The notes under the pieces: generated by a model | The model's database searches: none | What the model was told of the DNA's origin: nothing | What the model saw: the letters and a program-made list of their open reading frames with translations, nothing else | Part shown: piece by piece, positions 12,499 through 40,015 of the stretch | How positions within the stretch are numbered: position 1 is the stretch's first letter | Layout of the letters: the number at the start of each line of letters is the position of its first letter | Origin: Hyphomicrobiales bacterium | GTDB taxonomy: Bacteria; Pseudomonadota; Alphaproteobacteria; Rhizobiales; MH13 | DNA: 64,000 nt | Direction of reading: 5' to 3' | Assembly (NCBI GenBank): GCA_040219355.1 | Contig: JAVJSN010000015.1 | Location: forward strand, 382,708 to 446,707 | Program-made: the position numbers and the translations under genes

Positions 12499-12511
12499 GC
12501 TTTATCAACGT

Positions 12512-12535: not shown

Positions 12536-12570
12536 GCTCCCTCTCTCAGCCAAGCCGCCTGGAGCGAGCC

Positions 12571-13290: not shown

Positions 13291-13997
13291 TGACGCTCCT
13301 CAAGACCAATAATCTCACCGCCCATTATGGTGATTTCCAAGCCTTGTTCGGCGTGGATATCGACCTCAACGAGGGCGAGACCATCGCGATCATCGGTGCC
13401 AACGGCGCGGGCAAGACAACGCTCATGCGGTCCATCGCGGGCGTGCTCATTAATGCCCTAGGTACTGTAACCTTCGATGGCCAAGCCATTGGCAATGCGA
13501 CCGCCGATGCCATCATGGCGATGGGTGTGGCGATGGTGCCGGAGGGGCGACGCCTGTTCCCATCCTTGTCGGTGGAAGAGAACCTGCTGATCGGCACCTA
13601 TGGCCGCAAGACTGGCGGGCATTGGGATCTGGAGACGGTCTACGACCTCTTCCCGATCCTTAAAGAACGCCGCAGCAACCCCGGCACGGCGCTGTCAGGC
13701 GGCCAGCAACAGATGGTGGCAATTGGCCGGGCGCTGATGAGCAATCCGCGCATTCTTCTGTGCGATGAAATCTCGCTCGGCCTCGCACCGGTGGTGATCC
13801 GCGACATCTACAAAGCGGTTCCCAAAATCAAGGAGGCCGGGGCCTCTCTCATCTTAGTCGAACAGGACATCGGCCAGGCGATGCAGGTTGCCGACCGCGT
13901 CTACTGCATGATGGAAGGCCGGGTGACGCTGTCGGGCACGCCCGATGATCTGTCGCGGGAGGCTATCCACGACGCTTATTTTGGAGCAGCGGCATGA
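13290..13997 (+). CDS. ABC transporter ATP-binding protein (LivF-like)
   Basis: GANGAGKTT, LSGGQQQM, DEISLGLAP. The ATG overlaps the upstream TGA. Confidence 0.93.
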   Translation: MTLLKTNNLTAHYGDFQALFGVDIDLNEGETIAIIGANGAGKTTLMRSIAGVLINALGTVTFDGQAIGNATADAIMAMGVAMVPEGRRLFPSLSVEENLLIGTYGRKTGGHWDLETVYDLFPILKERRSNPGTALSGGQQQMVAIGRALMSNPRILLCDEISLGLAPVVIRDIYKAVPKIKEAGASLILVEQDIGQAMQVADRVYCMMEGRVTLSGTPDDLSREAIHDAYFGAAA

Positions 13998-14857
13998 TCT
14001 GGGTTGATACCGTCCTTCAAGGCATTCTGCTTGGTGGGCTTTACGCGCTATTTGCCGCCGGCCTCTCGCTCGTGTTCGGCATCATGCGGCTGGTGAACCT
14101 GGCCCATGGCGACCTTATCGTGATGGGCGCCTATCTCATCTTGCTGCTGGTGACGATGACCGGTCTGTCGCCCTTCCTTGCGGCGGCGGTGGCGATCCCG
14201 TTCATGTTCATGCTTGGTTATGGCCTGCAGAAGTACATGCTCAACCGCGTGTTGGGCGAGGACATCCTTCCACCCTTGTTGGTCACATTCGGCTTGTCGG
14301 TTGTGTTGCAAAACGCGCTGCTGGAAGGCTTTTCCGCCGACAGCCAACGCTTGCCCACTGGCGCCTTGTCCACGGCTTCGGTTGAGGTGGCGGGTATCAA
14401 TCTTGGTGTGCTGCCACTGCTCACTTTTGGCTCGGCGATCTTGGTGATCGTTGGCCTCAACCAGCTCTTCTATCGCACCGAGCTTGGTCGGGCGTTTCGC
14501 GCAACGTCTGATGATCCCACCACGGCAAGCCTTATGGGTATCAAGCCTGCAAATATCTTTGCCAAGGCAACCGGCATCGCGATGATCATTGTGACCATCG
14601 CCGCGCTCTATCTTGGCATGCGCTCGAACTTCGATCCGAACATTGGCCCGGCTCGCCTCATCTACGCGTTCGAGGCGGTAATCATCGGCGGTCTTGGATC
14701 GCTCTGGGGCACGCTCCTTGGCGGTATCATCATCGGAGTGGCGCAGACGGTGGGTGCGGCGATCAATCCCGAGTGGCAAATCCTGGCCGGCCATGTCGCC
14801 TTCTTGGTGGTGCTGCTCATTCGTCCGCGCGGGCTTTTCCCGCGGGCCGTGGATTAG
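13994..14857 (+). CDS. ABC transporter permease (LivH-like)
   Basis: GGLYALFAAGLSLVFGIMRLVNLAHGD, IIGGLGSLWG, RPRGLF. Confidence 0.92.
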   Translation: MIWVDTVLQGILLGGLYALFAAGLSLVFGIMRLVNLAHGDLIVMGAYLILLLVTMTGLSPFLAAAVAIPFMFMLGYGLQKYMLNRVLGEDILPPLLVTFGLSVVLQNALLEGFSADSQRLPTGALSTASVEVAGINLGVLPLLTFGSAILVIVGLNQLFYRTELGRAFRATSDDPTTASLMGIKPANIFAKATGIAMIIVTIAALYLGMRSNFDPNIGPARLIYAFEAVIIGGLGSLWGTLLGGIIIGVAQTVGAAINPEWQILAGHVAFLVVLLIRPRGLFPRAVD

Positions 14858-14868
14858 GAGGCCGAGCG

Positions 14869-15972
14869 ATGGATGACCACACGACACCCTATGCCGTTCA
14901 CACCGGCACCAAAGCCTCCAAGATAGCGGGCATCTTCGCCCTCATCCTGATCGTGGTGCTGGTGGCGCTGCCCGCCTTCGCCTCGCGAAGCCTGATCCAG
15001 GACATGTTTTTCATCCTCACTATGCTGGTGCTGGCGCAATTCTGGAACTTGCTCGCTGGTTATGGTGGGCTTGTCTCCATCGGCCAGCAAGCCTTTGTTG
15101 GCATTGGTGCTTACGCCATGTTCGGCGTCGTGATTCTCGCCGGGCTTGATCCCATACCCGCGATCTTGCTTGGCGGCGTTGTGGCCGTGCTCCTTGCTAT
15201 CCCCACTGCGTTCTTCGCGTTCCGCCTCCAAGGCGCTTATTTCGCCATTGGTACCTGGGTGATCGCCGAGGTGGTGCGCCTTGTGACGTCACAATGGCAG
15301 GCCGTCGGCGGCGGCACGGGCACGTCGCTGCCGCGCTCGGCGACACGCGAACTGATGTTCGCCGAAGCGATTGAAAACCTCTTCGGCGTGCGCAGCGCGG
15401 CGGCGCGCGACATCCTCTCTTACTGGCTGGCCGTTATCTTGGCGGTGGCGACCATTGGCGGCATCTATTGGCTTCTGCGCACCAAACGTGGTCTCGCTTT
15501 GGCCGCCGTGCGCGACAACATCGAAGCGGCTAAATCGGTCGGGGTCGATGCTGGGCGCATGAAGTGGGTCGTGTTCCTGGTCGCAGCCTTCGGCACCGGT
15601 ATCGCAGGTGCCCTGATCTATCTGCAAAAGGCGCGCATCTCACCCGACGCTGCCTTCTCGGTTCAGGACTGGACGGCTTACGTCATCTTCATCGTGGTGA
15701 TCGGCGGCATCGGCACCATTGAGGGGCCAATCGTTGGCGTGCTGGTGTTCTTCATCTTGCAATCGCTGCTTGCCGACTATGGCACCTGGTACCTGATGAT
15801 TCTTGGCATCATCGGCATCATCATCATGCTTTTCGCGCCCAAGGGCCTCTGGGGTCTGGTCTCCAGTCGCACCGGCGTTGAGCTGTTCCCGGTACGCCGA
15901 CGCCTGACCGGCGGGGCGCTGGATACCCCAAAACCAAAGACACAACAGACTGAGGAAGTACCAAATGGCTGA
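14869..15972 (+). CDS. ABC transporter permease (LivM-like)
   Basis: WNLLAGYGGLVSIGQQAF, RLQGAYFAIGT, VVIGGIGTIEGP. GGAGG RBS upstream of the ATG at 14869. Confidence 0.92.
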   Translation: MDDHTTPYAVHTGTKASKIAGIFALILIVVLVALPAFASRSLIQDMFFILTMLVLAQFWNLLAGYGGLVSIGQQAFVGIGAYAMFGVVILAGLDPIPAILLGGVVAVLLAIPTAFFAFRLQGAYFAIGTWVIAEVVRLVTSQWQAVGGGTGTSLPRSATRELMFAEAIENLFGVRSAAARDILSYWLAVILAVATIGGIYWLLRTKRGLALAAVRDNIEAAKSVGVDAGRMKWVVFLVAAFGTGIAGALIYLQKARISPDAAFSVQDWTAYVIFIVVIGGIGTIEGPIVGVLVFFILQSLLADYGTWYLMILGIIGIIIMLFAPKGLWGLVSSRTGVELFPVRRRLTGGALDTPKPKTQQTEEVPNG

Positions 15973-17725
15973 CATCACGACAGACGTTCTCATCATCGGC
16001 ACCGGACCTGCCGGGTCTGCCACCGCAGCGCTTCTTTCCAGCTATGGCATCGAGAATATGGCGGTGAACCGCTACCGCTGGCTCGCTAACACGCCGCGCG
16101 CGCACATCACCAACCAGCGCACGATGGAAGTGCTGCGCGATCTCGGACAGGAGGTCGAAGACGAGGCCTATATGTTCGCAGCCGAGCAAGAGCTTATGGG
16201 CGAGAACGTCTTCTGCGAAAGCCTGGCGGGTGAAGAGATCGGCCGCATGAAGAGCTGGGGCAATCATCCGATGTCGAAGGCGGAGCACCTGCTCTCTTCG
16301 CCAACCTTCATGAACGATTTGCCGCAAACAATGATGGAGCCGCTGCTCTTCAAGACGGCCTGCTCACGCGGCACACAGGCGCGCATGTCGACCGAGTATC
16401 TGCGCCATGAACAGGACGCAGAGGGCGTGACCACAACCTGTCTTGATCGGCTGAGCGGCAAAGAGATCACCATCCGCTCGCGCTATTTGGTGGGCGCTGA
16501 TGGGGGCAACTCCAAGGTGGCCGAGCTGGAGAATTTGCCGTTTGAAGGGGAGATGGGCGTCGGCGGCTCGATGAACATCATCTTCAAGGCTGACCTTTCG
16601 AAATTCGTCGCGCACCGTCCTTCTGTTCTCTACTGGGTGGTACAGCCGGGCGCGGATGTTGGCGGCATCGGCATGGGATTGGTGCGCATGGTGCGCCCCT
16701 GGAACGAGTGGCTGATCGTCTGGGGTTACGACATCAATCAGCCTGCGCCAGACGTGACAGATGATTTTGCAACCAAGGTGGTGCGCGATTTGGTTGGCGA
16801 TCAGTCTATTGAGCCCGAGATCACCTCCGTTTCGACGTGGACGGTGAACAACATGTACGCCACAAATATGCAGGCGGGCCGGGTGTTCATTATGGGCGAT
16901 GCGGCGCACCGTCATCCGCCGTCCAATGGGCTTGGGTCGAACACCTCGATCCAGGATTCCTTCAATCTTGCCTGGAAGCTTGCCGCCGTGATCAAGGGCC
17001 AGGCGGGTGAGGCTTTGCTTGACAGTTACTCAGAAGAACGCGCCCCGGTGGCCAAGCAGATTGTGACCCGCGCCAACCAGTCTATCGGCGAGTTTGGGCC
17101 GATCTTCGAGGCGCTGGGTTTGACCGAGTCTACCGATCCAGAGGTCATGCAGGCCAATATGGACAAGCGCTGCGATGCCAACATGGAAGCCGAGCAGCAA
17201 CGCGCCGCGATCCGCGAGGCGATTGCGTTCAAGAAGTACGAGTTCGACGCCCACGGCGTGGAGATGAACCAGCGATATAAATCATCGGCTATCGTCACCG
17301 ATGGGCAGATGGAGCCGGCCTTTGAGCTCGACGCTGAGCTACACTACCAGCCGACGACCTGGCCCGGTGCGCGCATCCCGCACGCCTGGGTTTATGACCA
17401 TGATGGTGGCAAGCATTCCACGCTCGATCTTGTCGGTCGCGGGCAATTCACGATCCTCACAGGGATCAATGGCGAACCCTGGATGGATGCTGCAACGAAG
17501 GTGGGCAAGGAGTTGGGCCTCGACATCCGCGCGCATGTGATCGGGCCGCGCCGGGATATCATCGACCATCATGGCGATTGGGCCCGTGCCCGTGAGGTCA
17601 ATGAAGCCGGCTGCGTTCTGGTCCGGCCTGATCAACATGTCGCCTGGCGGGCAGAAGATATGGTGGAAAACCCCGAAGCTGAGCTTACTCGTGTCCTCAA
17701 CGCCCTCCTACACCGCGCAAATTAG
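15965..17725 (+). CDS. FAD-dependent aromatic monooxygenase (TfdB / resorcinol 4-hydroxylase-like)
   Basis: GTGPAG, TPRAHITNQRTME, GADGGNS, GDAAHRHPPSNGLGSNTSIQD, and a C-terminal thioredoxin-like LVRPDQHVAWR. Confidence 0.9.
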   Translation: MADITTDVLIIGTGPAGSATAALLSSYGIENMAVNRYRWLANTPRAHITNQRTMEVLRDLGQEVEDEAYMFAAEQELMGENVFCESLAGEEIGRMKSWGNHPMSKAEHLLSSPTFMNDLPQTMMEPLLFKTACSRGTQARMSTEYLRHEQDAEGVTTTCLDRLSGKEITIRSRYLVGADGGNSKVAELENLPFEGEMGVGGSMNIIFKADLSKFVAHRPSVLYWVVQPGADVGGIGMGLVRMVRPWNEWLIVWGYDINQPAPDVTDDFATKVVRDLVGDQSIEPEITSVSTWTVNNMYATNMQAGRVFIMGDAAHRHPPSNGLGSNTSIQDSFNLAWKLAAVIKGQAGEALLDSYSEERAPVAKQIVTRANQSIGEFGPIFEALGLTESTDPEVMQANMDKRCDANMEAEQQRAAIREAIAFKKYEFDAHGVEMNQRYKSSAIVTDGQMEPAFELDAELHYQPTTWPGARIPHAWVYDHDGGKHSTLDLVGRGQFTILTGINGEPWMDAATKVGKELGLDIRAHVIGPRRDIIDHHGDWARAREVNEAGCVLVRPDQHVAWRAEDMVENPEAELTRVLNALLHRAN

Positions 17726-26393: not shown

Positions 26394-28118
26394 ATGAAGT
26401 CAATCCTTAGAACAACCTCGGTGCTTGCACTGACGGCAGGGCTGTTGCCCGTCATGCCGGCATTTGCCGACATGGATGCCGCGACCGCATTCCTTGATGC
26501 GGAAATCGAGCGCTCCGTGATTAGCCGCGCTGAGCAGGAAGCGGAGATGCAGTGGTTTATTGACGCTGCTGAGCCCTATCAAGGGATGGAAATTCGTGTG
26601 GTGTCGGAAACGATCACAACCCACGAATATGAAGCCAACGTGTTGGCGCCAGCGTTCACCGCAATCACCGGCATTCAGGTCACCCACGATCTGATCGGCG
26701 AGGGCGATGTTGTTGAGCGTCTGCAAACGCAGATGCAGACCGGCGAAAACATCTATGATGCTTATGTGAACGATTCCGATCTCATCGGCACACACTGGCG
26801 CTATCAGCAGGTTCGCAACCTGACCGACTGGATTGCAGGTGAAGGCGCTGACGTTACCAGCCCAACGTTGAACCTGGACGATTTCATCGGCCTGGACTTC
26901 ACCACCGGTCCTGATGGCAAGCTCTACCAGATGCCGACGCAGCAGTTCGCGAACCTTTACTGGTTCCGTTATGACTGGTTCACCGACGAAAAGAACATGG
27001 CCGACTTCGAAGCCGAATATGGCTATCCGCTTGGCGTGCCAGTGAACTGGACGGCGTACGAGCAGATTGCTGAGTTCTTCACCGGTCGCGATCTCTCGCA
27101 TATGGGTCATGAAGGCGATGTCTACGGCCACATGGACTATGGTCGTCGCGATCCCTCGCTTGGCTGGCGCTTCACCGATGCGTGGATGTCGATGGCTGGC
27201 ATGGGAGACGTTGGCGAGCCGAACGGTCTGCCGGTCGATGAGTGGGGCATTCGTGTGAACGAAAACTCTCAGCCCGTGGGTTCTTGTGTTGCCCGTGGCG
27301 GTGCTACCAACGGTCCAGCAGCTGTTTATGCCATCGAAAAGTACACCGATTGGCTGACTGCTTATGCACCTCCGGCTGCTGCTGGCATGAACTTCTCTGA
27401 ATCCGGTCCGATCCCATCGCAGGGCGGCATCGCGCAGCAGATGTTCTGGTACACAGCGTTCACCGCCGACATGGTGGGTGAAGGTGCGGCTGCTGTTCTC
27501 AACGAAGATGGCTCACCGCGCTGGCGCATGGCCCCAAGCCCGCATGGCGCTTACTGGGAAGATGGCATGAAGGTCGGTTACCAGGATGCTGGTTCCTGGA
27601 CCTTGATGGAGTCGACCCCAGTGGATCGTGCGCAGGCTGCTTGGCTCTACGCCCAGTTCGTCACCTCCATGACGGTCGATCTTGAGAAGTCTCACACTGG
27701 TCTGACATTCATCCGTGAATCGACGATCAACCATGAGAGCTTCACCGAGCGTGCGCCGAACCTTGGTGGTCTGGTCGAGTTCTACCGCTCGCCGGCTCGC
27801 GTTCAGTGGTCACCAACCGGCACCAACGTGCCTGACTACCCACGTTTGGCGCAGCTCTGGTGGCAGAACATTGGTGATGCCTCTTCTGGTTCCCTTTCGG
27901 CTCAGGAAGCACTCGACAATCTCTGCGCCGAGCAAGAACGTGTTCTTGAGCGTTTGGAGCGTTCTGGTGTTCAGGGCGACCTTGGTCCGGTCCTCAACGA
28001 GGAAATGGATCCAGAGTTCTGGTTGAGCCAGCCAGGGTCTCCGAAAGCTGAGTTGGAGAACGAAGACGAGCAGCCAATGACGATCAGCTACGATGAGCTG
28101 ATCCAGTCCTGGCAGTAG
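26394..28118 (+). CDS. glpV: Glycerol ABC transporter substrate-binding protein
   Basis: Signal peptide, 574 aa, SETITTHEYE, DSDLIGTHWRY, WRFTDAW, GYQDAGSWT, TGTNVPDYP. Confidence 0.85.
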   Translation: MKSILRTTSVLALTAGLLPVMPAFADMDAATAFLDAEIERSVISRAEQEAEMQWFIDAAEPYQGMEIRVVSETITTHEYEANVLAPAFTAITGIQVTHDLIGEGDVVERLQTQMQTGENIYDAYVNDSDLIGTHWRYQQVRNLTDWIAGEGADVTSPTLNLDDFIGLDFTTGPDGKLYQMPTQQFANLYWFRYDWFTDEKNMADFEAEYGYPLGVPVNWTAYEQIAEFFTGRDLSHMGHEGDVYGHMDYGRRDPSLGWRFTDAWMSMAGMGDVGEPNGLPVDEWGIRVNENSQPVGSCVARGGATNGPAAVYAIEKYTDWLTAYAPPAAAGMNFSESGPIPSQGGIAQQMFWYTAFTADMVGEGAAAVLNEDGSPRWRMAPSPHGAYWEDGMKVGYQDAGSWTLMESTPVDRAQAAWLYAQFVTSMTVDLEKSHTGLTFIRESTINHESFTERAPNLGGLVEFYRSPARVQWSPTGTNVPDYPRLAQLWWQNIGDASSGSLSAQEALDNLCAEQERVLERLERSGVQGDLGPVLNEEMDPEFWLSQPGSPKAELENEDEQPMTISYDELIQSWQ

Positions 28119-29571: not shown

Positions 29572-30483
29572 TTAGCTGGGCTCACCTACCGGGAGCGATT
29601 CCAGTAGCGACCAAATAAGGTCTTCACTTTTGGTCGTCTCTTGGTTGAGGCGCGCGGCAGTGATTGTGAGATCGCAACTGGGTAATGTGGACGAGAGATC
29701 GTGAAGACTCCCAGAGGATAGTTCCTTGCGTGCAAGTGATAGTGGCACCCAGGCAACGCCGATGGCGGAGGCTGCAAATTCTAATGCGGCCAGAGTGAGT
29801 GCTGTTTCCACGCGTGGGACGGCGTCGGCAAGGCTACGTACTCGTGGGAGGATCGTGCGATCCATCACCTGGCCCAAGAACACATCATTGGGGTAAGCGA
29901 TAATGGGCAATTGTCCGGACGCAAAACGCTCGTTGAGCAGAGCCTTGTCGGCAGCTGAAAACACAGGAACCAGCCTGTCGTTGCCGATGGTTAGCGTTTG
30001 GAGAAAATCTGCAGATTGGTCCGGTTTTTGATCTGGCGCTTGGTAGAGAATGGCCAAATCTGCCTGGCGTCCCAAGAGCAAGCTAAAACAATCATCCAGA
30101 TTGGCTGAGCGCAGCCGTACGTAAAGCTCACTGTGGTGTCGTTGTATGACTCTAAGCACGCGTGGGGTAAACGCGGCGGTCAGCGCATGCTGGCTGGCAA
30201 TCACCAAGCGATTGCCGGACAATCGGCTGCTGCGCTGTAAATCGGTGGATAGCTGCCGCAAGCTGCCAACAAGCCTAGCGATCTCGGCTTTGTTCTCATC
30301 TGTGGTCGGCTTTAGCTGGATGGGCTTTCGGGTGCGGTCGAATAGTTCCACGCCCAGATGCTCTTCAATCTGTTGGATGCGGCGAGAGAATGCCGACGGC
30401 GTTAAGTGCTGTCTGTCTGCGGCTTCAGTGAAGGAGCCGGTGTCGGCGACCGCCAAGATATCCTCAAGCCATTCTAATCGCAT
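29572..30483 (-). CDS. LysR family regulator divergent from cuyA (CuyR-like)
   Basis: GSFTEAADRQHLTPSAFSRRIQQIEEHLGVELFDR. Confidence 0.9.
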   Translation of the reverse strand: MRLEWLEDILAVADTGSFTEAADRQHLTPSAFSRRIQQIEEHLGVELFDRTRKPIQLKPTTDENKAEIARLVGSLRQLSTDLQRSSRLSGNRLVIASQHALTAAFTPRVLRVIQRHHSELYVRLRSANLDDCFSLLLGRQADLAILYQAPDQKPDQSADFLQTLTIGNDRLVPVFSAADKALLNERFASGQLPIIAYPNDVFLGQVMDRTILPRVRSLADAVPRVETALTLAALEFAASAIGVAWVPLSLARKELSSGSLHDLSSTLPSCDLTITAARLNQETTKSEDLIWSLLESLPVGEPS

Positions 30484-30593
30484 GACGCTCCCCTAAGTTG
30501 CATGATTTGCATGTTAGATCAAAAATTTCGAATTTGCATTGGGGTTTTTCGTCAGCAAGACTGCGATGGTGCAATTTTAACAAAGGACCTGCC

Positions 30594-31616
30594 ATGCACC
30601 TCGCTCGTTTTCCTCGGCTTCGGCTGGCGCATCTCCCAACCCCGCTGGAACCGATGGAGCGGTTGAGCAAGGAGTTGGGTGGTCCGGAGATCTGGATTAA
30701 GCGCGACGACTGCACCGGCATGTCCACTGGCGGCAACAAGACGCGCAAGCTGGAATTTCTGATGGCCGAAGCCGAGGCCATGAACGCCGACATCGCCATG
30801 ACCCAGGGCGCAACCCAGTCTAACCATGCTCGTCAGACGGCGGCCTTTGCTTCCAAGCTCGGCATGAAATGCCACATCCTGCTTGAGGACCGTACCGGCT
30901 ACAGCGATCATAATTACAACGACAATGCCAATGTGCTGCTTGATCATTTGCATGGCGCGACCACGGCTAAGTATCCCGGTGGTCACGACATGCCTGGCGA
31001 GATGGAAAAGGCCGCCGAGGCGGCCCGCGCCGAGGGTAAGACGGTTTATGTGATCCCAGGCGGAGGATCGAACCCGACGGGTGCCCTAGGATACGTCAAC
31101 TGCGCGATGGAGTTGCTCGCCCAGGCCAATGAGCAAGGCTTGGTGGTCGATCATCTTGTGCACGCGACTGGGTCATCGGGCACCCAGGCCGGATTGGTCG
31201 TCGGCTTGAAGGCTTTGAATGCTGGCATTCCTCTCCTCGGGTTCGGCACCCGCGCGCCGCAGCCGAAACAAGAGCAGATGGTCTATGACCTGGCCTGTAA
31301 AACGGCGGAAAAAATGGGATTGCCTGGCATTGTTGCGCGCGAAGATGTTCGTGCCGACACGAACTATGTCGGCGAAGGCTACGGCCTGCCGCGCGAGGAC
31401 ACGCTGGAAGCGATCCGGATGTTTGCTGAGCTGGAGGGTATCCTTCTGGATCCTGTTTACTCCGGCAAAGGTGCTGCTGGTCTGATCGACTATGTCCGTA
31501 GAGGACACTTCAAAAAGGGCGAGCGCGTGGTTTTCCTTCACACTGGTGGATCGGCGGCTTTGTTTGGCTATGACGCCTTCTTTGCTGACACTTCCATGGC
31601 GCAGGCGGCGGAGTAA
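30594..31616 (+). CDS. cuyA: Cysteate sulfo-lyase / D-cysteine desulfhydrase family PLP enzyme
   Basis: [78 protein letters not shown]. Closely resembles Ruegeria CuyA as I recall it, and the context is sulfonate genes. Confidence 0.8.
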
Positions 31617-31619
31617 GCC

Positions 31620-32822
31620 ATGGGTCTGCCACCCTTTCGGGGCAGTTTCACACAGCAGGAACCGATCCCTGATGAGGGGATCGCGGCAGCTGTTGAGGTG
31701 ATGCAGTCCGGGCGATTGCACCGCTACAACGTTTTGGCGGGTGAAGAATCCGAGACGGTCCTGCTGGAGCGTGATTATGCCGCTTGGCAAGGCGCGCGCT
31801 ACTGTCTGGCCGTGGCATCTGGCGGACAGGCGATGCAGATTGCGTTGCGCTCCGCTGGCGTCAAGCCCGGCGACAAAGTGCTCACCAATGCCTTCACGCT
31901 TGCGCCTGTTCCTGGCGCCATCGCCGGAGTCGGCGCCGAGCCGGTGCTTGTCGAAATCACCGAGGATTTGGTCATCGATTTAGATGATCTTCGCGCCAAG
32001 GCCGAGCAGTCAGGCGCTAAGGTGCTGATGCTGTCGAACATGCGCGGTCATCTTTGTGACATGGACGCGTTGGGTGCTTTGACCGAAGCGCTAAACATAA
32101 CCCTGCTAGAAGACTGTGCCCACACGATGGGTGCATCCTGGCGTGGCAAGAAGTCGGGCAATTTCGGGTTGGCCGGTTGTTTCTCCAGCCAGACCTACAA
32201 GCATATCAATTCCGGCGAGGGCGGGCTGATCATCTCCACGGATGAAGCCTTCATGGCACGTGCGACAATTATGTCTGGCTCCTACATGCTGTTTGATCGT
32301 CATGGCGCGGGGCCTGCCGCTGATGTTTACGATGACATCAAGTTGGATACGCCCAACATGTCGGCGCGGATGGACAATCTGCGTGCGGCGATCCTTCGCC
32401 CGCAATTGGCCAAGCTGGATGATGCAATCGCCCGCTGGAACGAGCGTTATCGTGTCGTCGAAGAAGCTCTGTCGCAAAGCAACACCTTCCATTTGCCAAA
32501 GCGGCCAAGCGAGGAGTTTTTTGTAGGCTCGTCGATCCAGTTTTTGATGTCTGGATTGGATGAGGCGGCGGCGCGCGCTTTCCTGCGTGACACGCGCGAG
32601 CGCGGCATTGATCTGAAATGGTTTGGCGATGCTGACCCGGTCGCCTTCACTTCGGCGCATTCAAGCTGGCGCTATGTACCCCGTCAACATCTGCCGCAAA
32701 CTGATGATGTCTTGGCCAGTCTCTTCGACATGCGCTTGCCGCTGACCTTCTCGCTTGCCGATTGCGAGTTGATTGCCGCCCATATTGTCGAAGCGGCCAA
32801 CGAGCTGGTTGCCAATGCTTGA
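31620..32822 (+). CDS. DegT/DnrJ/EryC1/StrS family PLP-dependent enzyme
   Basis: SGRLHRY, LLEDCAH, SSQTYKHINSGEGG (PLP-binding Lys). Confidence 0.88.
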   Translation: MGLPPFRGSFTQQEPIPDEGIAAAVEVMQSGRLHRYNVLAGEESETVLLERDYAAWQGARYCLAVASGGQAMQIALRSAGVKPGDKVLTNAFTLAPVPGAIAGVGAEPVLVEITEDLVIDLDDLRAKAEQSGAKVLMLSNMRGHLCDMDALGALTEALNITLLEDCAHTMGASWRGKKSGNFGLAGCFSSQTYKHINSGEGGLIISTDEAFMARATIMSGSYMLFDRHGAGPAADVYDDIKLDTPNMSARMDNLRAAILRPQLAKLDDAIARWNERYRVVEEALSQSNTFHLPKRPSEEFFVGSSIQFLMSGLDEAAARAFLRDTRERGIDLKWFGDADPVAFTSAHSSWRYVPRQHLPQTDDVLASLFDMRLPLTFSLADCELIAAHIVEAANELVANA

Positions 32823-33615
32823 GCGGAGCGCCCTTCGACCGGTTGGTGTTTTGGGCGGTATGGGGCCTGAGGCGACGCTTTTGTTCATGCAGCGGGTGCT
32901 CGCGGCTGTGCCGGCTCGCGATGACGCCGACCACATTCCTTTGCTCGTTGATCAGAATCCGCAGGTCCCCTCGCGCATTGGGGCCTTGATTGAAGGCACC
33001 GGGGAAGATCCGTCGCCTGCGCTTTCGACCATGGCACGGCGCCTTGAAGTGGCAGGCGCGCAAGCGCTGGTCATGCCCTGTAACACTGCTCATGCCTACG
33101 CGCCCGCCATTCGAGCCGCTGTGACCATCCCGTTCCTTTCGATGGTGGATGTGACCGCCCAAACTATCGCCGCGCACTATCCCGGCGCAAAAGTCGGCAT
33201 GCTGGCGTCTCCTGCCGTAAAGCTAACTGGCGTGTTCGAACCGGCCTTCAAAGCGGCGGGTCTCTCACCGCTCTACGCGGACGATCAGGGCGGCCTGCTG
33301 CAAGCCATTCGATGCTTGAAGCAAGATGGCGCAGATGTTGGCGCGCGAAAAACTGCGGTCCTAGCCGCCAACGCACTGCGCGCCTCGGGCGCCGACATCG
33401 TGCTTGTCGGATGCAGCGAGTTCTCAATGCTCACCCAAGATATCGCGGCGGAGATGCCGTTGATCGACAGCTTGGATGTGCTCGTCTCGGCAACCGTGAC
33501 GTTTTCTCAACTCGGGGACAGTGCCGCAGGCGTCTGCCCCACAGCCGTGCATAGACCGGGTGCGGCTTCTTCCAAAAACCATTCCGGTCAGACAACAAGG
33601 GAAGCAGTAGTATGA
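32815..33615 (+). CDS. Aspartate/glutamate racemase family protein (candidate cysteate racemase, CuyB-like)
   Basis: GVLGGMGPEAT; both catalytic Cys are present (MPCNTAH, VGCSEF). The start overlaps the upstream gene. Confidence 0.88.
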   Translation: MLERSALRPVGVLGGMGPEATLLFMQRVLAAVPARDDADHIPLLVDQNPQVPSRIGALIEGTGEDPSPALSTMARRLEVAGAQALVMPCNTAHAYAPAIRAAVTIPFLSMVDVTAQTIAAHYPGAKVGMLASPAVKLTGVFEPAFKAAGLSPLYADDQGGLLQAIRCLKQDGADVGARKTAVLAANALRASGADIVLVGCSEFSMLTQDIAAEMPLIDSLDVLVSATVTFSQLGDSAAGVCPTAVHRPGAASSKNHSGQTTREAVV

Positions 33616-34574
33616 TGAAATCCGTGTCCAAAACGGCACTTGCGACCGGCGTATGTGCGCTTGCAGCCGTTTCCACAGGCCAGGCAGCAGACCTGGTTCT
33701 CGGCGTGCCAAATTGGCCGGCGGCCAACGCGACGGCGAACATTCTTAAAGTGGTTATCGAGGAAAATTTTGGCCTTGATGTTGAGCTTCAAAACGGCACC
33801 AATCCAATCATCTTCGAGGCGATGGACGCCGGGTCGATGCACCTACACCCAGAGGTTTGGATGCCGAACCAGCAAAATCTGCACGATCAGTATGTGCAGG
33901 AAAATCAATCGGTTGTTATGAACAACAACCCCGTTCAGGCTGTTCAGGGCATGTGCGTTCCAACGTATATCGCCGAGCAGTACGATATAACCAGCATTGA
34001 GGATCTGACCGATCCGGAAAAGATGGCGATCTTCGACTTCGATGGCAATGGAACGCCGGAAGTTTGGATTGGGGCACCAGGTTGGGCTTCCACAGCGATC
34101 GAGCGCATTCGCGCGCGCTCCTATGGCTACGATGAAGTGATGGACCTCCAGGAATATGATGGCTCAGTCGCTTGGGGCGCGCTGGGAAGCGCGGTTGCCG
34201 CCGAAGAGCCATGGATTGGCTTTTGCTACGACCCGCACTTCATCTTCGTGGCCTATGACCTGACTATCCTAGATGAACCACCCCATGATCCGGACACTTG
34301 GACGATCATTCAGCCGACAGATGATCCGGCTTGGCTTGAAAAGTCAGAGGCATCGACTGCTTGGAACGGCGCCACGCTGCATTTGCACTATGCAGCCAGC
34401 GTTCGGGATGATTTCCCCGAAGTCGCAGCGATGTTCGATGCCTACCAGATGCCATCGGCAGCTCTGAGCGAAATGGGCTACGCGCTGAGCGTGCAGGGCG
34501 AAGATGCAGCTGATTTCGCCCGTCGCTGGGTTGATGAGAATGAAGACGTCGTTCTTGGTTGGCTGACCAACTAG
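33612..34574 (+). CDS. Glycine betaine/proline-type (ProX/OpuAC) ABC substrate-binding protein
   Basis: Signal peptide, GVPNW, HPEVWMPNQ, GAPGW, CYDPH. Confidence 0.85.
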   Translation: MMKSVSKTALATGVCALAAVSTGQAADLVLGVPNWPAANATANILKVVIEENFGLDVELQNGTNPIIFEAMDAGSMHLHPEVWMPNQQNLHDQYVQENQSVVMNNNPVQAVQGMCVPTYIAEQYDITSIEDLTDPEKMAIFDFDGNGTPEVWIGAPGWASTAIERIRARSYGYDEVMDLQEYDGSVAWGALGSAVAAEEPWIGFCYDPHFIFVAYDLTILDEPPHDPDTWTIIQPTDDPAWLEKSEASTAWNGATLHLHYAASVRDDFPEVAAMFDAYQMPSAALSEMGYALSVQGEDAADFARRWVDENEDVVLGWLTN

Positions 34575-34582
34575 CTCCCTCC

Positions 34583-34608
34583 CGGGTGGCCGCTTTTGTG
34601 GCCACTCG
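34583..34608 (+). terminator. Intercistronic hairpin after the SBP gene
   Basis: CGGGTGGCCGC-TTTT-GTGGCCACTCG, an 11-bp stem with two G-U pairs. Confidence 0.5.
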
Positions 34609-34657
34609 TCTCCCCCCATTTTTTGACCCTTCAATCGTAGCGTGGAAGTGAAGCGCC

Positions 34658-35707
34658 GTGGATGTGAATCCCAAGCCGGAAGCCGTGGTTGAACTCTCGA
34701 ATGTGTGGAAGGTGTTCGGTGAACGCGCCTCACAGACAGTGGAGGCCGCAAAGACAACCGGGCTCACCAAAGCGCAAGCGCTGGAGAAATTCGCCACTGT
34801 TATCGGCGTGCGTGATGCAAGTTTTTCGGTCGCGCGCGGCGAGATATTTTGCATCATGGGTTTATCTGGGTCGGGAAAGTCGACCCTGGTGCGCCATGTC
34901 AACCGGCTGATTGAGCCGACTGCCGGCACGATCAAAGTGCTCGGCGAAGATGTCAGCGCCATGGGCACGAAGGATTTGCGCGCTATGCGCTCGCGTCATA
35001 TCGGCATGGTGTTTCAGCATATGGCGCTGATGCCGCATCGTTCGGTGCGTGAAAACGTTGCTTATCCACTCGAGATTCGCGGCGTTCCCAAATCGCAGCG
35101 TTGGGCCGTGTCTGATCACACGCTGGGGCTGGTCGATCTGCAAGGTTATGAGGACAGGCTGCCGCGCGAACTTTCTGGCGGCATGCAGCAGCGCGTCGGT
35201 ATTGCGCGGGCGTTGGCCTCTGATCCTGAAATTCTTCTCATGGACGAACCATTCTCCGCGCTTGACCCATTGATACGGCTGCAGCTGCAAGATCAGTTTA
35301 GAGCGCTTGTTTCTGAACTGAAAAAGACGACCCTGTTCATCACCCATGATCTGGATGAAGCGATCCGCATCGGTCATCGCATCGCAATTATGAAAGATGG
35401 GGTGATCGTCCAGATTGGTACGCCGGAAGACATCGTGACCAATCCAGCGGACGATTATGTTCGCGAGTTTGTTCAGGGCATCTCGCGGCTTAAGCTTGTG
35501 AAGGCGCACTCTATTATGCAGCCACTCAACGGTTATGACCGCTCAGCCCTTGTTGATGCCAAGCGAGCCTCTCACGACACAGACCTTGATACGCTCATAG
35601 ACATGTCGGTCGACAGTGATGCTCCGGTGGTGGTCACTGAAGGCGGTAACGAGGTTGGTTACATTTCCAAGGCCACGCTGTTGCGTGGCATCCAAGGCGG
35701 ACGATAG
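34658..35707 (+). CDS. ProV/OpuAA-type ABC ATP-binding protein
   Basis: [39 protein letters not shown]. Confidence 0.92.
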
Positions 35708-35716
35708 GGGGCGAAC

Positions 35717-37300
35717 ATGACCGATCAAACCGTTCAGGATGATTTACTGCCTCGGAATGTACTGAAGGCCTCCGCTGTCGCCAATGTCCAGGTCGACCGA
35801 GCAGCACTCGATCAGTCCATCGCCGCGTTCGTTGAGCGCAATCCAAGCTATTATCAGCGCGTCTTTCACACGATTCACGACACGACATCGGGCATCCCGC
35901 TCACGTTCAATGCAGCCGCCGCTTTGCTCGGCCCACTTTGGGCCGCGGCACGTGGTGTCTGGGGTATGTTTTGGGGGTTTTTGATCCTGGAGATCATCGC
36001 CTGGGTGCAAATCGGGCGTGGCACTTGGGGCGAGTTGGGCGCTGCCGACCTGCAGCAGGCCATCCGCCAAGAAACGCGAGCACAAGAGTTTCTTGATCGT
36101 GCCGCCGCAGCTATTGCCGCCGGCGAGGACGGCTCGCGGTTCGAGACGCTTGGCGATAACTTGATGCGAGCAGCCGAGCGCAGTCGCGCCGCCGCTGATG
36201 CGGCCGCCGCCGACGCCATGATGATCCTGCTGACCGGTATCGTGCTGCTCATTGCCATCCGTGTCGTACAGGGCGTGTGGAGTAACATTGCCTATGAGAA
36301 GCAGTACTCAGCTTGGCGCGTGACGCCGGACAAGGTGGCTTCAGGCGTCAGCATGGTATCGGCTGGGTTTGGCGCGCTGTTGCTGATCGCGGTGATGCCG
36401 CTGACCGTCTATCGCTTCACCGTGGAAAACGTGCCGGAATTCCTGCTCGCTTTCCCGGCAACGCCTGACCATTACACCGACACGGCCCGTTGGCTCGAAG
36501 GCCAAATCGATGCGGCAGCAACGGCTGGCTCAGGTACCTTTGATGGCATCGTGCTGGCTGTACGCACTGTGCTCGACACAGTGTCGCTGGCATTGATGGG
36601 AACCCCTTGGCCGGTGGTCATGATCGTGATCTGCGTCGTAGCCTGGCGGTCTGCTGGCCCGCGCGTAGCGATCTTCACTGCGGCAGCACTCGCCTACATC
36701 GCCTTCCTTGGCTATTGGGAAATAGCGATGGAAACGGTGGCTTTGGTCGGCGCAGCGGTGGTTCTCTGCGTGCTTGCCGGCATTCCGCTGGGCATTTGGT
36801 TTGGCAAGTCTATTCGGGCCTACAAATTCGCCGAGCCTGTGCTCGATCTGATGCAAACGCTTCCCGCTTTCGTCTATTTAATTCCCATCATTGCCTTTTT
36901 TGGGACAGGCAATCCTCCTGGTATTCTTGCCACCATCATCTTTGGTATGCCGCCTGTTATCCGACTGACGGCGCTCGGCATTCGCGGCGTGCCGGAAAGC
37001 ATCAAAGAGGCAGCGTCTGCTTTTGGTGCCTCGCGTCGACAGATTCTGCGGGATGTGGAAATACCGCTGGCATTGCCATCCATCATGACTGGGGTGAACC
37101 AAACCATCCTGATGTGTCTGTCGATGGTCGTGATCATCTCCCTGATCGGTGGCGGTGGACTTGGCCAGGTCATCCTTGAAGCTCTGCAGTTTGCAGCCAA
37201 AGGACCCGGCCTTCTCGGCGGCTTTGCCATTCTTTTTGTTGCCATGGTCATTGACCGCATCGTGCAGGGCGCGTTCCGTCGCGCTGACCTTAAGACCTAG
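35717..37300 (+). CDS. ProW-type ABC permease with a long N-terminal extension
   Basis: The C-terminal half has LDLMQTLPAFVYLIP, RLTALGIRGV, EAASAFGAS, GVNQTI. About 250 extra residues sit at the N-terminus. Confidence 0.88.
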   Translation: MTDQTVQDDLLPRNVLKASAVANVQVDRAALDQSIAAFVERNPSYYQRVFHTIHDTTSGIPLTFNAAAALLGPLWAAARGVWGMFWGFLILEIIAWVQIGRGTWGELGAADLQQAIRQETRAQEFLDRAAAAIAAGEDGSRFETLGDNLMRAAERSRAAADAAAADAMMILLTGIVLLIAIRVVQGVWSNIAYEKQYSAWRVTPDKVASGVSMVSAGFGALLLIAVMPLTVYRFTVENVPEFLLAFPATPDHYTDTARWLEGQIDAAATAGSGTFDGIVLAVRTVLDTVSLALMGTPWPVVMIVICVVAWRSAGPRVAIFTAAALAYIAFLGYWEIAMETVALVGAAVVLCVLAGIPLGIWFGKSIRAYKFAEPVLDLMQTLPAFVYLIPIIAFFGTGNPPGILATIIFGMPPVIRLTALGIRGVPESIKEAASAFGASRRQILRDVEIPLALPSIMTGVNQTILMCLSMVVIISLIGGGGLGQVILEALQFAAKGPGLLGGFAILFVAMVIDRIVQGAFRRADLKT

Positions 37301-37308
37301 GACGCTCC

Positions 37309-38616
37309 ATGCCTGCTACCTATTTGAAGACGGCCGTGAAAACGGCTGAGACGGACCAGTCCGACGTACAAAGGACCGTTGCAGAGATGCTGTGCGCCAT
37401 TGAAACTGGCGGCGACCGTGTTGCGGCGGACTATTGCCGGACATTCGATGGTTGGAGTGGCGATATCATTGTCGGTCGTGAGGCGATCGAGGCAGCGATC
37501 GCCAAGGTCCCCGAGCAACTGAAGCAAGACATTCGTTTCGCGCACGACAATATCCGCCGGTTTGCTGAGGCTCAGCGCGCAACGATCCAGGAGTGTCAGA
37601 TCGACGTCATCCCTGGATTGACAGCCGGCCAGAAACAAATCCCGGTTTCGGCCGCTGGGTGTTATGTGCCGGGCGGGCGCTACAGCCACATTGCTTCGGC
37701 GATCATGACGATTACAACCGCCAAGGTGGCCGGTGTGCCGCATATCGCTGCTTGTTCGCCGCCAAAACCCGGCGAGGGCATTCCCGCGGCTATTTTGTTT
37801 ACGATGGATTTGTGCGGCGCCGATGTCATCCTGAATATGGGTGGGGTTCAGGGTATCGCCGCAATGGCCTACGGCCTTTTTGGCCTACCGAAAGCCGATA
37901 TTTTGGTCGGCCCAGGAAACCAGTTCGTCGCTGAGGCCAAGCGTTTGCTTTTCGGACAGGTTGGGATCGATATGTTCGCCGGTCCAACGGACTCCATGGT
38001 GATCGCAGACAAGCACGCCGACCCAGAGGTCGTCGCTTGGGATTTGGTGGGGCAGGCTGAGCATGGCTATAACTCGCCGGTTTGGCTTGTAACCGACAGC
38101 CGATCGATTGCTGATCGCGTGAGCAACCTCGTGCCGGAACTGATTGCCCAGTTGCCGGACCTCAACGGCAAGAACGCCAAGGCAGCTTGGCACAATTATG
38201 CCGAGATCATCCTTTGTGCAAATCGCGAAGAAATGGCGCAAACCGCTGATCGCTATGCTCCCGAACATCTGCATGTGCAGGCAGAGGGTTTGGATTGGTG
38301 GTTGGGCCGTCTCTCCAGTTACGGCTCTTTGTTCCTTGGCGAAGAAACAACGGTGGCCTTTGGCGACAAGGCCGCCGGCCCTAACCACGTGCTGCCGACG
38401 TCTGGCGCTGCGCGTTACACAGGTGGGTTGTCGGTGCACAAATTTATGAAGACAGTGACGTGGCAGCGCGCCACCCGCGAGGGTGCAAGGCCGGTTGCCG
38501 AAGCGACGGCGCGCATCTCACGCCTTGAAGGCATGGAGGGGCATGCTAAGACGGCAGACATTCGTCTTGAGAAATATTTTCCTCAAGAGACGTTCGATCT
38601 TCGCGTGACCAGCTAG
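37309..38616 (+). CDS. hpsN: HpsN-like NAD-dependent sulfonate-alcohol dehydrogenase (histidinol dehydrogenase family)
   Basis: CYVPGGRYSHIASA, GPGNQFVAEAKR, AGPTDS, QAEHGYNSP, APEHL, GDKAAGPNHVLPT, LEGMEGHA. These are HpsN-type rather than HisD-type variants. Confidence 0.75.
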   Translation: MPATYLKTAVKTAETDQSDVQRTVAEMLCAIETGGDRVAADYCRTFDGWSGDIIVGREAIEAAIAKVPEQLKQDIRFAHDNIRRFAEAQRATIQECQIDVIPGLTAGQKQIPVSAAGCYVPGGRYSHIASAIMTITTAKVAGVPHIAACSPPKPGEGIPAAILFTMDLCGADVILNMGGVQGIAAMAYGLFGLPKADILVGPGNQFVAEAKRLLFGQVGIDMFAGPTDSMVIADKHADPEVVAWDLVGQAEHGYNSPVWLVTDSRSIADRVSNLVPELIAQLPDLNGKNAKAAWHNYAEIILCANREEMAQTADRYAPEHLHVQAEGLDWWLGRLSSYGSLFLGEETTVAFGDKAAGPNHVLPTSGAARYTGGLSVHKFMKTVTWQRATREGARPVAEATARISRLEGMEGHAKTADIRLEKYFPQETFDLRVTS

Positions 38617-38631
38617 TCTGGGGGCTAACCC

Positions 38632-39612
38632 TTGTTTTCTATCTTCAAACCGCTCGCGGGCGGCTATAGCGGTCTTGCTTTGGCCGTTACAATTGCCCTG
38701 TGCGCCGGGTTTTTGTCGGAGCATTACGGCGCGCCAGTCATGCTGTTTGCCTTGTTGGTGGGCATGGCGTTCAATTTCCTAGCCGATCATCCCAAATGCG
38801 CAGGCGGAATCACGTTTGCCTCAAAATCTCTGCTTCGCATGGGCGTTGCGCTGCTCGGTTTTCGGCTCAGCCTAAGCGACGTCACAGCGCAGGGTTGGGA
38901 GCCGGTGGCGGTGATTATCGCGCTGGTTGCTCTAACGCTCGCCAGCGGCGCTCTGCTGGCGCCTCTGTTTAAGCGAAAAATTGCTTTTGGTATCTTGACC
39001 GGTGGTGCAACGGCTATCTGCGGTGCATCGGCGGCGCTGGCTATTTCTGCCGTCATGCCAAAGCGCGACAATCTTGAGCGCGACACGCTGTTCACTGTCG
39101 TCGCCGTAACAACGCTGAGCACCGTAGCTATGGTGCTTTACCCGCTGCTGTTCTCGGTGCTTGGCTTCAACGACGAGCAGTCCGGATTTTTAATTGGCGC
39201 GACGATCCACGATGTGGCGCAGGTTGTCGGTGCTGGGTTTTCGATCAGTGATGAAGCTGGCAATGTCGCCACGCTCACCAAGTTGCAGCGGGTTTTGCTG
39301 CTCCCGGTTGTTATCCTGGCTATTTTAATTGCCACGCGCAAAAGCGACGGTGAGCGCGTGGGTATTCCGCTGTTCGTGATCGCCTTCATCGTTTTCATGT
39401 TGATCAACTCAACCGGTTTATTGCCGGTAGCGGTCGTCGCTTTTTTTGTCGAAGCAAGCCGTTGGATGCTGATCATTGCCATCGCCGCGTTGGGTGTGAA
39501 GACGTCCCTTGGTGCCATGGTCAATCTTGGCGGCAATCACATTGCGTTGGTTGTTGCTCAGACTGTTTTCCTGCTTGTCGCTGCTATTGCGGCCAAGCTT
39601 CTTTTTCTTTGA
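38632..39612 (+). CDS. YeiH/UPF0324 family membrane protein (putative sulfate/sulfite exporter)
   Basis: LLRMGVALLG, ICGASAALA, GATIHDVAQVV, ATLTKLQR, KTSL. TTG start. Confidence 0.88.
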   Translation: MFSIFKPLAGGYSGLALAVTIALCAGFLSEHYGAPVMLFALLVGMAFNFLADHPKCAGGITFASKSLLRMGVALLGFRLSLSDVTAQGWEPVAVIIALVALTLASGALLAPLFKRKIAFGILTGGATAICGASAALAISAVMPKRDNLERDTLFTVVAVTTLSTVAMVLYPLLFSVLGFNDEQSGFLIGATIHDVAQVVGAGFSISDEAGNVATLTKLQRVLLLPVVILAILIATRKSDGERVGIPLFVIAFIVFMLINSTGLLPVAVVAFFVEASRWMLIIAIAALGVKTSLGAMVNLGGNHIALVVAQTVFLLVAAIAAKLLFL

Positions 39613-39637
39613 CCCATCCTGAAATGGAGACACATGT

Positions 39638-40015
39638 ATGCCCGTAACCACTTTGATCGCTGATGGCGCTCCGCCAGCCGTTGGCCCTTACAGCCACGCA
39701 GCAAAGGCTGGCGACACGCTGTATATCTCCGGATGTTTGGCGCTTGATGAAACCGGCACGTTCTTAGGTGGTGATGCAGCTGCACAGGCACGCCAAGCGT
39801 TGAGCAATCTTGGCAAAGTGCTGGCCGCTGATGGCCAAGAGCCGCGCAATGTGGCCAAGGCCGTTGTGTTTCTAACCGATATGGCAGATTTCGCCGCCGT
39901 CAACGCCGTCTATACTGAGTTTTTCGGTGACCACAAACCGGCCCGCTCTTGCATTGCGGTTGCGGCGCTGCCGCTTGGGGCAACGGTTGAGATTGAAGCT
40001 GTCGCGGTCAAATAG
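39638..40015 (+). CDS. RidA family enamine/imine deaminase
   Basis: PPAVGPYSHA, YISG, VNAVY, PARSC (catalytic Arg), LPLGATVEIEA. Confidence 0.92.
   Translation: MPVTTLIADGAPPAVGPYSHAAKAGDTLYISGCLALDETGTFLGGDAAAQARQALSNLGKVLAADGQEPRNVAKAVVFLTDMADFAAVNAVYTEFFGDHKPARSCIAVAALPLGATVEIEAVAVK

Follow-up and report, generated by a model that had tools for sequence, protein, structure and literature searches.

A predicted D-cysteinolate catabolic operon with a candidate osmolyte-type importer in a member of the Hyphomicrobiales

Cysteinolate (2-amino-3-hydroxypropane-1-sulfonate) is among the most abundant sulfonates of marine algae, and its aerobic turnover has barely been studied. A bacterial pathway from D-cysteinolate to pyruvate, ammonia, and sulfite was described recently (Liu et al., J Biol Chem, December 2025; PMC12814064). 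According to that work, the genes cuyA and cuyB are often found beside a close homologue of hpsN and a gene for a PF01041 enzyme named CuyC. CuyC of Bilophila sp. 4_1_30 catalyzes an exchange of the D-cysteinolate alpha-proton, and CuyC and HpsN together convert this compound to cysteate. HpsN favors L-cysteinolate over (R)-2,3-dihydroxypropane-1-sulfonate (DHPS), which it oxidizes at a slower rate, and D-cysteinolate is not a substrate. CuyB and then CuyA give pyruvate, ammonia, and sulfite (CuyC, HpsN, and CuyA being the enzymes that were assayed; PMC12814064). Desulfovibrio litoralis, a carrier of the cluster, grows with D-cysteinolate as sulfite source, as well as with L-cysteate, and cysteinolate clusters are stated to be most common in aerobic marine Alphaproteobacteria (PMC12814064). 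Here, these systems are compared with an operon of a Hyphomicrobiales bacterium (assembly GCA_040219355.1, 3.73 Mb in 18 contigs). It lies at positions 29572–40015 of a stretch of 64,000 nucleotides, called the window below, which corresponds to positions 382708–446707 of contig C15. Judging by gene content and homology, this operon is very probably a LysR-controlled catabolic unit for the algal osmolyte D-cysteinolate.

The operon and its predicted route

The operon comprises ten confirmed genes: one for a LysR-family regulator on the minus strand and nine divergent plus-strand genes in the order cuyA, cuyC, cuyB, three genes for an ATP-binding cassette (ABC) transporter (substrate-binding protein, SBP; ATPase; permease), hpsN, yeiH, and ridA. 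Published cysteinolate clusters were recognized by a cuyC gene located at most five open reading frames (ORFs) from genes of the families PF00815 (HpsN), PF01177 (CuyB), and PF00291 (CuyA) (PMC12814064). In the window, cuyC (31620–32822; PF01041, 192 bits) has cuyA (30594–31616) directly upstream and cuyB (32815–33615) directly downstream, and hpsN (37309–38616) is the fifth ORF downstream. The operon is therefore assigned, on bioinformatic grounds, to the published D-cysteinolate degradation clusters. The products of cuyA and cuyB are recognized by NCBIfam equivalog models as the D-cysteate sulfo-lyase (NF052482, 536 bits, cut-off 450) and the cysteate racemase of the two-cysteine Asp/Glu racemase family (NF052483, 271 bits, cut-off 190), respectively. 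CuyA is a pyridoxal 5′-phosphate (PLP) enzyme with the D-cysteine desulfhydrase/1-aminocyclopropane-1-carboxylate deaminase fold. The catalytic cysteines of CuyB are found in 'PCNTAH' and 'GCSE', and are conserved in at least 95% of 25 aligned sequences. The same gene order is seen in a congeneric metagenome-assembled genome (MAG), in Oceaniradius stylonematis, in a Rhizobiaceae MAG, and in other genomes; since it repeats across families, the arrangement is not due to chance.

The predicted route would start with the import of zwitterionic cysteinolate by the OpuAC/ProVW-type ABC system. CuyC, by homology to the assayed Bilophila enzyme, would racemize D- to L-cysteinolate, and HpsN (hereafter HpsN1) would oxidize the latter to L-cysteate in a zinc-dependent, four-electron reaction with two NAD+, as suggested by homology and by the presence of all the HpsN residues. 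CuyB would then turn L-cysteate into D-cysteate, from which CuyA would eliminate sulfite and free 2-aminoacrylate, both steps being predicted from the equivalog assignments. RidA is an enamine/imine deaminase whose established function is the hydrolysis of 2-aminoacrylate and iminopyruvate; here it would release pyruvate and NH3 and in this way protect the PLP enzymes of the operon, CuyA and CuyC. Finally, the YeiH/TauZ-like membrane protein would export sulfite, or sulfate after oxidation. Two racemizations are required in this scheme, because CuyC makes the L-isomer that HpsN accepts while CuyB racemizes cysteate. L-Cysteate itself should also be degradable through the steps from CuyB onwards, and (R)- and (S)-DHPS would be handled by a separate operon of the same contig.

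A preliminary description of this DNA had proposed cysteinolate/cysteate catabolism, and its enzymatic route coincides with the one shown biochemically in the recent work; the warning given there that parts of the route might already be in the literature was justified, since the whole of it is in that paper (PMC12814064). All the genes named in that description (the divergent LysR gene, cuyA, the DegT-type PLP enzyme, the racemase, the ProU-type ABC system, the HpsN-like dehydrogenase, YeiH, and RidA) were recovered where it had placed them. The DegT-type enzyme had been left without a role; its presence stands, and it is now assigned as the CuyC cysteinolate racemase that would supply HpsN with the L-isomer. 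The enzymatic pathway is already known, and what this locus adds is a candidate importer, a predicted exporter, and a second hpsN nearby that is probably dedicated to DHPS. The terms transporter, ABC, TRAP, exporter, RidA, and LysR are absent from the text of the paper that describes the pathway (PMC12814064).

The four enzyme families of the hpsN-cuyC-cuyA-cuyB cluster of Bilophila sp. 4_1_30 and D. litoralis, that is, two racemases, one HisD-type dehydrogenase, and one PLP sulfo-lyase, are all found in the window operon with the same predicted chemistry. The order is different (cuyA-cuyC-cuyB-ABC-hpsN), and the window operon contains in addition the OpuAC/ProVW-type candidate importer, the predicted YeiH-family exporter, RidA, and the divergent LysR gene. 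Unlike those two bacteria, the host of the window operon is aerobic, and sulfite would be a waste product to be exported or oxidized and not an electron acceptor. With the cysteate dissimilation systems based on cuyA and cuyB, such as that of Bilophila wadsworthia (Liu et al., J Biol Chem 2024; PMC11193023), the operon shares the terminal module of CuyB and CuyA, to which it adds a cysteinolate-to-cysteate module and an importer. In Ruegeria pomeroyi (cuyARZ), as in the window, a LysR regulator gene is located beside cuyA. The predicted exporter of the window is of the YeiH/PSE type, unlike CuyZ of R. pomeroyi, which we take to be a TauE/DUF81-type protein.

CuyC belongs to the DegT/DnrJ family and reaches no sugar-aminotransferase equivalog among the NCBIfam models. 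Its PLP lysine aligns within QTYKHINSGEGG. It is 57–89% identical to 80 homologues, mostly from marine Alphaproteobacteria, and 57–68% identical (tblastn E-values of 1e-156 to 1e-179) to many homologues from Roseobacteraceae and Paracoccaceae of the kind described in the published work (PMC12814064). The CuyC cluster of the published similarity network, drawn at E ≤ 1e-110 (about 45% identity), holds both the Bilophila protein G1V6E7 and the R. pomeroyi protein Q5LPQ3 (PMC12814064). Genes for CuyC are also found outside cuyA/cuyB clusters. In two gammaproteobacterial loci of the Candidatus Pseudothioglobus/SUP05 type (L030 and L072), cuyC lies less than 9 kb from hpsN, hpsO, and suyB, and in L030 also from hpsP. 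These clusters are of the DHPS type and lack cuyA and cuyB, and in the tree presented below their HpsN proteins are placed with that of Cupriavidus. This suggests that cysteinolate may feed other sulfonate routes in such abundant pelagic bacteria.

Regarding gene limits, the start of cuyA is probably the ATG at 30594 and not the TTG at 30498 of the ORF list, because NF052482 matches the listed ORF from residue 33 onwards and the purine-rich sequence AAAGGA precedes the ATG. The likely start of cuyB, the ATG at 32815, overlaps the cuyC stop by 8 nt, and the remaining junctions range from −4 to +25 nt except for one wider gap of 83 nt before the ATPase gene, in agreement with the tight spacing noted previously (−8 to +25 nt overall, with that single exception). 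Base composition is even across the operon. The upstream flank contains genes for a glycerol-3-phosphate dehydrogenase, a sugar-type ABC system, and a major facilitator superfamily (MFS) protein, and the downstream flank contains FGGY kinase, aldolase, and HAD genes. Since these flanking genes are unrelated, the operon is self-contained, as the preliminary description had held.

HpsN paralogues and the separate DHPS operon

HpsN1, the predicted L-cysteinolate dehydrogenase, is a member of the HisD family (PF00815). It is 69.5% identical (652 bits) to the protein of PDB entry 8WWE, deposited as (R)-DHPS dehydrogenase and reported in the paper that characterizes R. pomeroyi HpsN (PMC11131964), and 57.5% identical to Cupriavidus CpHpsN (8V35), for which the zinc, catalytic, and sulfonate ligands have been named (PMC11382572). 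The HpsN-specific motif G-R-Y-A/S-H, with His126 of CpHpsN, is kept as G-R-Y-S-H, and so are Ser/Thr226, Gln248, His251, Glu318, His319, Asp352, Lys353, His359, and His411 (CpHpsN numbering; the residue numbers of HpsN1 are higher by one). By these residues HpsN1 is a true HpsN. The enzyme had been described as HpsN-like: the HisD-family assignment stands, and the qualification proved too cautious, since every HpsN-specific residue is present.

A whole-genome search revealed a second HpsN (HpsN2), 71% identical to HpsN1, at 458.4–459.7 kb of contig C15. It belongs to a DHPS operon at about 453–463 kb, beyond the window end (446.7 kb) and 36.8 kb from hpsN1 (minus strand, 6327–16162 of locus L081, which spans C15:446708–466700). 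This operon contains genes for a tripartite ATP-independent periplasmic (TRAP) transporter (DctP/Q/M), hpsN2, an HpsO-like short-chain dehydrogenase/reductase (SDR), an HpsP-like Zn-dependent alcohol dehydrogenase, SuyA (9668–9958 of L081), SuyB, a sulfolactate-dehydrogenase-like Ldh_2 enzyme, and a second YeiH. Neither HpsO or HpsP nor a sulfolactate-degrading enzyme was found within 29572–40015 or its flanks. The earlier remark that hpsO/hpsP, suyAB, and a TRAP transporter are not seen therefore holds for the stretch 29572–40015 and not for the genome. Compared with the DHPS operons of R. pomeroyi and Cupriavidus pinatubonensis (hpsKLM TRAP, hpsN/O/P, suyAB), the window operon has in common the HpsN family with its sulfonate and zinc site, and differs in lacking HpsO, HpsP, SuyAB, and TRAP genes; a YeiH-type gene towards the end is a further feature that the window operon has in common with the DHPS operon of its own genome. 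Among the desulfonating enzymes searched for in the genome, only CuyA and SuyAB were recognized, and Xsc gave no match above cut-off.

The existence of an HpsN paralogue in the DHPS operon indicates that HpsN1 serves a separate route. HpsN2 is also closer than HpsN1 to the characterized (R)-DHPS dehydrogenase 8WWE (78 vs. 69.5% identity; 734 vs. 652 bits). In a maximum-likelihood tree of 56 HpsN/HisD-family sequences, each labeled by its neighboring genes, the alphaproteobacterial DHPS-linked HpsN proteins, including 8WWE, form one well-supported clade, and the cuy-linked proteins fall into two adjacent groups outside it, where HpsN1 is placed. The tree requires 4–5 label changes, in contrast to about 18 when the labels are shuffled. 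When the first shell was compared between the cuy-linked and the DHPS-linked proteins, no residue differed; six fully discriminating columns separate the two sets (positions 26, 134, 142, 165, 336, and 381 in CpHpsN numbering), all of them away from the listed ligands. Based on genomic context and phylogeny, it is plausible that HpsN1 and HpsN2 have specialized for cysteinolate and DHPS, respectively, which fits the published promiscuity of the enzyme, and the two proteins constitute a natural pair for separating cysteinolate from DHPS oxidation. This has consequences for environmental studies. In ocean surveys, hpsN detected at low bit-score cut-offs serves as a marker of DHPS use (PMC11131964), and such cut-offs would also count cuy-linked copies such as HpsN1.

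A third HisD-family paralogue is found on contig C17 (6072–11283 of locus L082, C17:92000–111000). It is 46% identical to HpsN. At the motif site it reads G-K-F-P-M, instead of G-R-Y-S-H as in HpsN or G-S-A-P-L as in HisD, so that it lacks the HpsN motif. Its gene is located after a TAXI-TRAP binding protein gene and a fused TRAP permease gene and before an SDR gene, and it has orthologues in most congeners.

The transporter and the alternative readings

No cysteinolate uptake system is described in the literature accessible to search, and the operon offers a concrete candidate. Its transporter is formed by an OpuAC-family periplasmic SBP (33612–34574; PF04069, 174 bits) whose N-terminus resembles a signal peptide on inspection, a ProV-type ATPase (34658–35707; TIGR01186, 344 bits, cut-off 326.6), and a ProW-type permease (35717–37300; BPD_transp_1 at residues 355–517, with the ProW/ChoW models matching from residue 257). 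With an OpuAC-fold SBP that has an aromatic cage, a ProV ATPase, and a ProW permease, the transporter has the make-up of the ProU/OpuA type. Nonetheless, the SBP is not an equivalog of ProX (NF008334, 62.8 bits against a cut-off of 215) or of the choline-binding ChoX (TIGR03414, 44.7 bits against 379). The fold and the ProV/ProW-type partners are common to DmpXWV, for dimethylsulfoniopropionate (DMSP; PDB 7YLE), to TmoXWV, for trimethylamine N-oxide (TMAO; PDB 4XZ6), and to ProU, although the SBP is only remotely similar to proteins of solved structure (best phmmer E-value 1e-10). Unlike those systems, the window permease carries an N-terminal extension of about 250 residues (35717–36480), with about three extra hydrophobic segments in a crude hydropathy scan, an Ala-rich linker that is probably helical, and no similarity to the C-terminal permease domain; the genomic context also differs, as it points to a primary-amine sulfonate and not to a methylated onium compound.

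Three observations tie the OpuAC system to the pathway. It is located inside the operon; the same slot between cuyB and hpsN is occupied elsewhere by a taurine-type transporter; and the SBP gene adjoins cuyC. A sample of 301 genomes of the order gave 11 with an SBP of 71% identity or more, and in ten of these its gene adjoins cuyC (the exception being G050). A more distant tier (about 51% identical) directly adjoins a CuyC-like gene (48–52%) in five genomes, in clusters without cuyA or cuyB. The slot is filled either by an OpuAC-type ABC system or by one of the TauABC/NMT1 type, the latter in Cypionkella, Limimaricola, Ancylobacter, and several MAGs, which is a non-orthologous replacement. HpsK, the binding protein of the DHPS TRAP transporter of R. 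pomeroyi, clearly prefers DHPS, and the analogues for which an appreciable stabilization of HpsK is reported do not include cysteinolate (PMC13335735). Taking gene context and family together, the OpuAC/ProVW-type system is a candidate for the cysteinolate importer, and we consider this assignment probable, with less confidence than the assignment of the operon itself.

The pocket of DmpX consists of W35, T64, W84, E113, W152, A153, Y200, and W202 (PMC10030565), and the aligned positions of the window SBP are W35, T63, W83, Q112, W158, A159, F204, and Y206, none of which varies among the 12 orthologues examined. Both the aromatic cage of DmpX and its Thr/Ala hydrogen-bond positions are therefore kept, and the change to be stressed is that of Glu113 of DmpX to Gln. 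A pairwise alignment had seemed to show a loss of the cage ('GWWVP' to 'GMCVP', and Trp to Asp); this was discarded as a one-position offset, since counting of the pocket residues and an L-INS-i alignment show the cage to be kept.

CuyC-like genes (about 50%) adjoin an OpuAC-type ABC system of the same kind, without cuyA or cuyB, in two further loci, L123 (G108:C48, 366–13696) and L122 (G076:C2, 4762–13793). L123 also encodes a HisD-like protein (58%), a 682-aa agmatinase-family protein, a LacI regulator, a ThrC-like PLP enzyme, and an oxidase similar to dimethylglycine dehydrogenase (DMGDH), and in L122 a gene of the non-pyrrolysine MttB family is located two regulator genes away. These clusters may act on guanidino- or N-methyl-derivatized amino-sulfonates or amino alcohols.

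Several other readings of the operon have to be considered. The transporter could serve ordinary osmoprotectant uptake (of betaine, DMSP, or choline-O-sulfate) or take up N-methylated sulfonates, its tie to the enzymes being a loose one. All four cage positions of DmpX are kept and invariant in the 12 orthologues, the ATPase passes the cut-off of the betaine/proline/choline subfamily, and in distant relatives the pair of SBP and CuyC-like genes is found near MttB-type and DMGDH-like genes. On the other hand, the transporter genes are inserted between cuyB and hpsN with junctions of 4 and 8 nt, close SBP orthologues adjoin cuyC in 10 of 11 cases, a taurine-type ABC takes their place in other genomes, the window operon contains no demethylase, and the chemistry of CuyC needs a primary amine, all of which makes this reading unlikely. 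The imported substrate could also be L- or D-cysteate, with hpsN and cuyC feeding only a minor side substrate. CuyB and CuyA alone suffice for the use of cysteate, many loci carry LysR-cuyA-cuyC-cuyB without hpsN nearby, and the growth of D. litoralis with L-cysteate agrees with this idea; however, cuyC and hpsN share the operon with the transporter, loci that lack cuyA and cuyB still combine the SBP gene with cuyC (L122 and L123), and cysteate is net negative, whereas the SBP pocket resembles those for net-neutral zwitterions, with Glu replaced by Gln and no added basic residue. We give cysteate as the main substrate an equally low probability.

Still less probable is a DHPS/sulfolactate route in which the ABC system imports DHPS, HpsN makes (R)-sulfolactate, which is taken to sulfopyruvate, and the DegT enzyme transaminates the latter to cysteate for CuyB and CuyA. 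The identity of 69.5% between HpsN1 and the characterized (R)-DHPS dehydrogenase, with all substrate ligands in common, and the slower oxidation of (R)-DHPS by Bilophila HpsN speak in its favor, and a branch from sulfolactate through sulfopyruvate and cysteate to CuyA has been discussed in the literature, where it was proposed for R. pomeroyi. Nonetheless, the window operon has no sulfolactate dehydrogenase, racemase activity has been demonstrated for the CuyC family, the anionic DHPS is a less suitable ligand for an OpuAC-type SBP than a zwitterion, and DHPS is already provided for in the genome by a complete operon that includes a TRAP transporter of its own, HpsN2, HpsO/P-like genes, SuyAB, and Ldh_2. 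A DHPS route through the window operon was rejected, given the complete DHPS operon nearby with its own HpsN and the absence of a sulfolactate enzyme from the window operon.

The assignment to D-cysteinolate must in turn be weighed against several points. The SBP keeps the aromatic cage of DMSP, TMAO, and betaine binders (W35/W83/W158/Y206 against W35/W84/W152/W202 of DmpX), and since such a cage is unexpected for a primary-amine ligand, this calls for caution. HpsN1 and HpsN2 do not differ in their first-shell residues, and two cuy-linked HpsN proteins (L025 and L075) are located inside the DHPS clade. CuyC has been likened to the assayed Bilophila enzyme through family and gene context, the YeiH protein stays below the cut-off of TIGR00698 (138 against 232.6 bits), and the enzymes and the transporter of this organism are known from sequence alone. 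A stronger, combined claim would be that the OpuAC/ProVW system is the first dedicated cysteinolate importer and represents a new specificity class of betaine-binding proteins, and that HpsN1 and HpsN2 are specialized for L-cysteinolate and (R)-DHPS through second-shell changes; we propose it tentatively, as somewhat more doubtful than not. If it is true, SBPs of the new class accommodate a primary-ammonium sulfonate in the aromatic cage that they have kept, and environmental hpsN counts taken as a DHPS marker include cysteinolate dehydrogenases. The pathway itself being described, the remaining interest of the locus lies in the candidate importer and in the pair of HpsN paralogues.

Regulation, sulfur disposal, and distribution

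The cuyR-like gene for the LysR-family regulator (29572–30483, minus strand; Pfam HTH_1, 68 bits; LysR_substrate, 54 bits) encodes a protein that reaches no NCBIfam equivalog. A divergent LysR gene is found upstream of cuyA in about 20 related loci. In the window, the intergenic region is 110 bp long when cuyA starts at the ATG at 30594, and the sequences TTGCATGATTTGCAT (30498–30512) and TTTCGAATTTGCAT (30526–30539) correspond to a shared motif, (A/T)TGCA-N5/6-TGCAT followed by CGnATTTGCAT. This motif is present in 11–12 of 14 cuy clusters examined, with either type of transporter, and is not evident in L017 and L125; it is a credible candidate for the LysR operator. A scan for consensus promoters gave three sites, not above chance (4.0 ± 2.0 expected), and terminator-like matches (22 against 12.3 ± 3.9 expected) all fall inside coding sequence and are uninformative.

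The YeiH/PSE-family membrane protein (38632–39612; PF03601, 208 bits) is a predicted sulfite or sulfate exporter, placed in its family by the Pfam match and by its association with sulfonate dissimilation genes. The yeiH gene follows hpsN in many cuy clusters, whichever the transporter type, and a paralogue ends the DHPS operon. The disposal of a sulfur oxyanion by the window protein fits these associations. TauZ is taken here as another member of the YeiH/PF03601 (PSE) family. It has been described as a sulfate exporter (PMC5320631). A search of the genome for a sulfite dehydrogenase found only a SorA/SorT-like molybdoenzyme well below the equivalog cut-off. The last gene of the operon, ridA (39638–40015), passes the cut-off of the Rid-family model TIGR00004 (137 against 106.25 bits), and it follows yeiH in congeners as well.

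Within the genus, an hpsN1-type copy with ProW, YeiH, and RidA neighbors is found in 9 of 16 species, and hpsN2 in nearly all. The congener G005 (locus L129, G005:C2:37000–50500) is collinear with the window on both sides and lacks the segment 28118–38496. This 10.4-kb deletion took the MFS gene, the LysR gene, cuyA, cuyC, cuyB, the ABC genes, and most of hpsN, and left the last 120 nt or so of hpsN (encoding '...ARISRLEG'), yeiH, and ridA. Such a scar indicates that the operon is being lost in some lineages. A separate observation concerns the ORF of 574 aa at 26394–28118, which has no Pfam match: its protein is 98% identical to that of G005, whereas the neighboring genes reach only about 82–90%.

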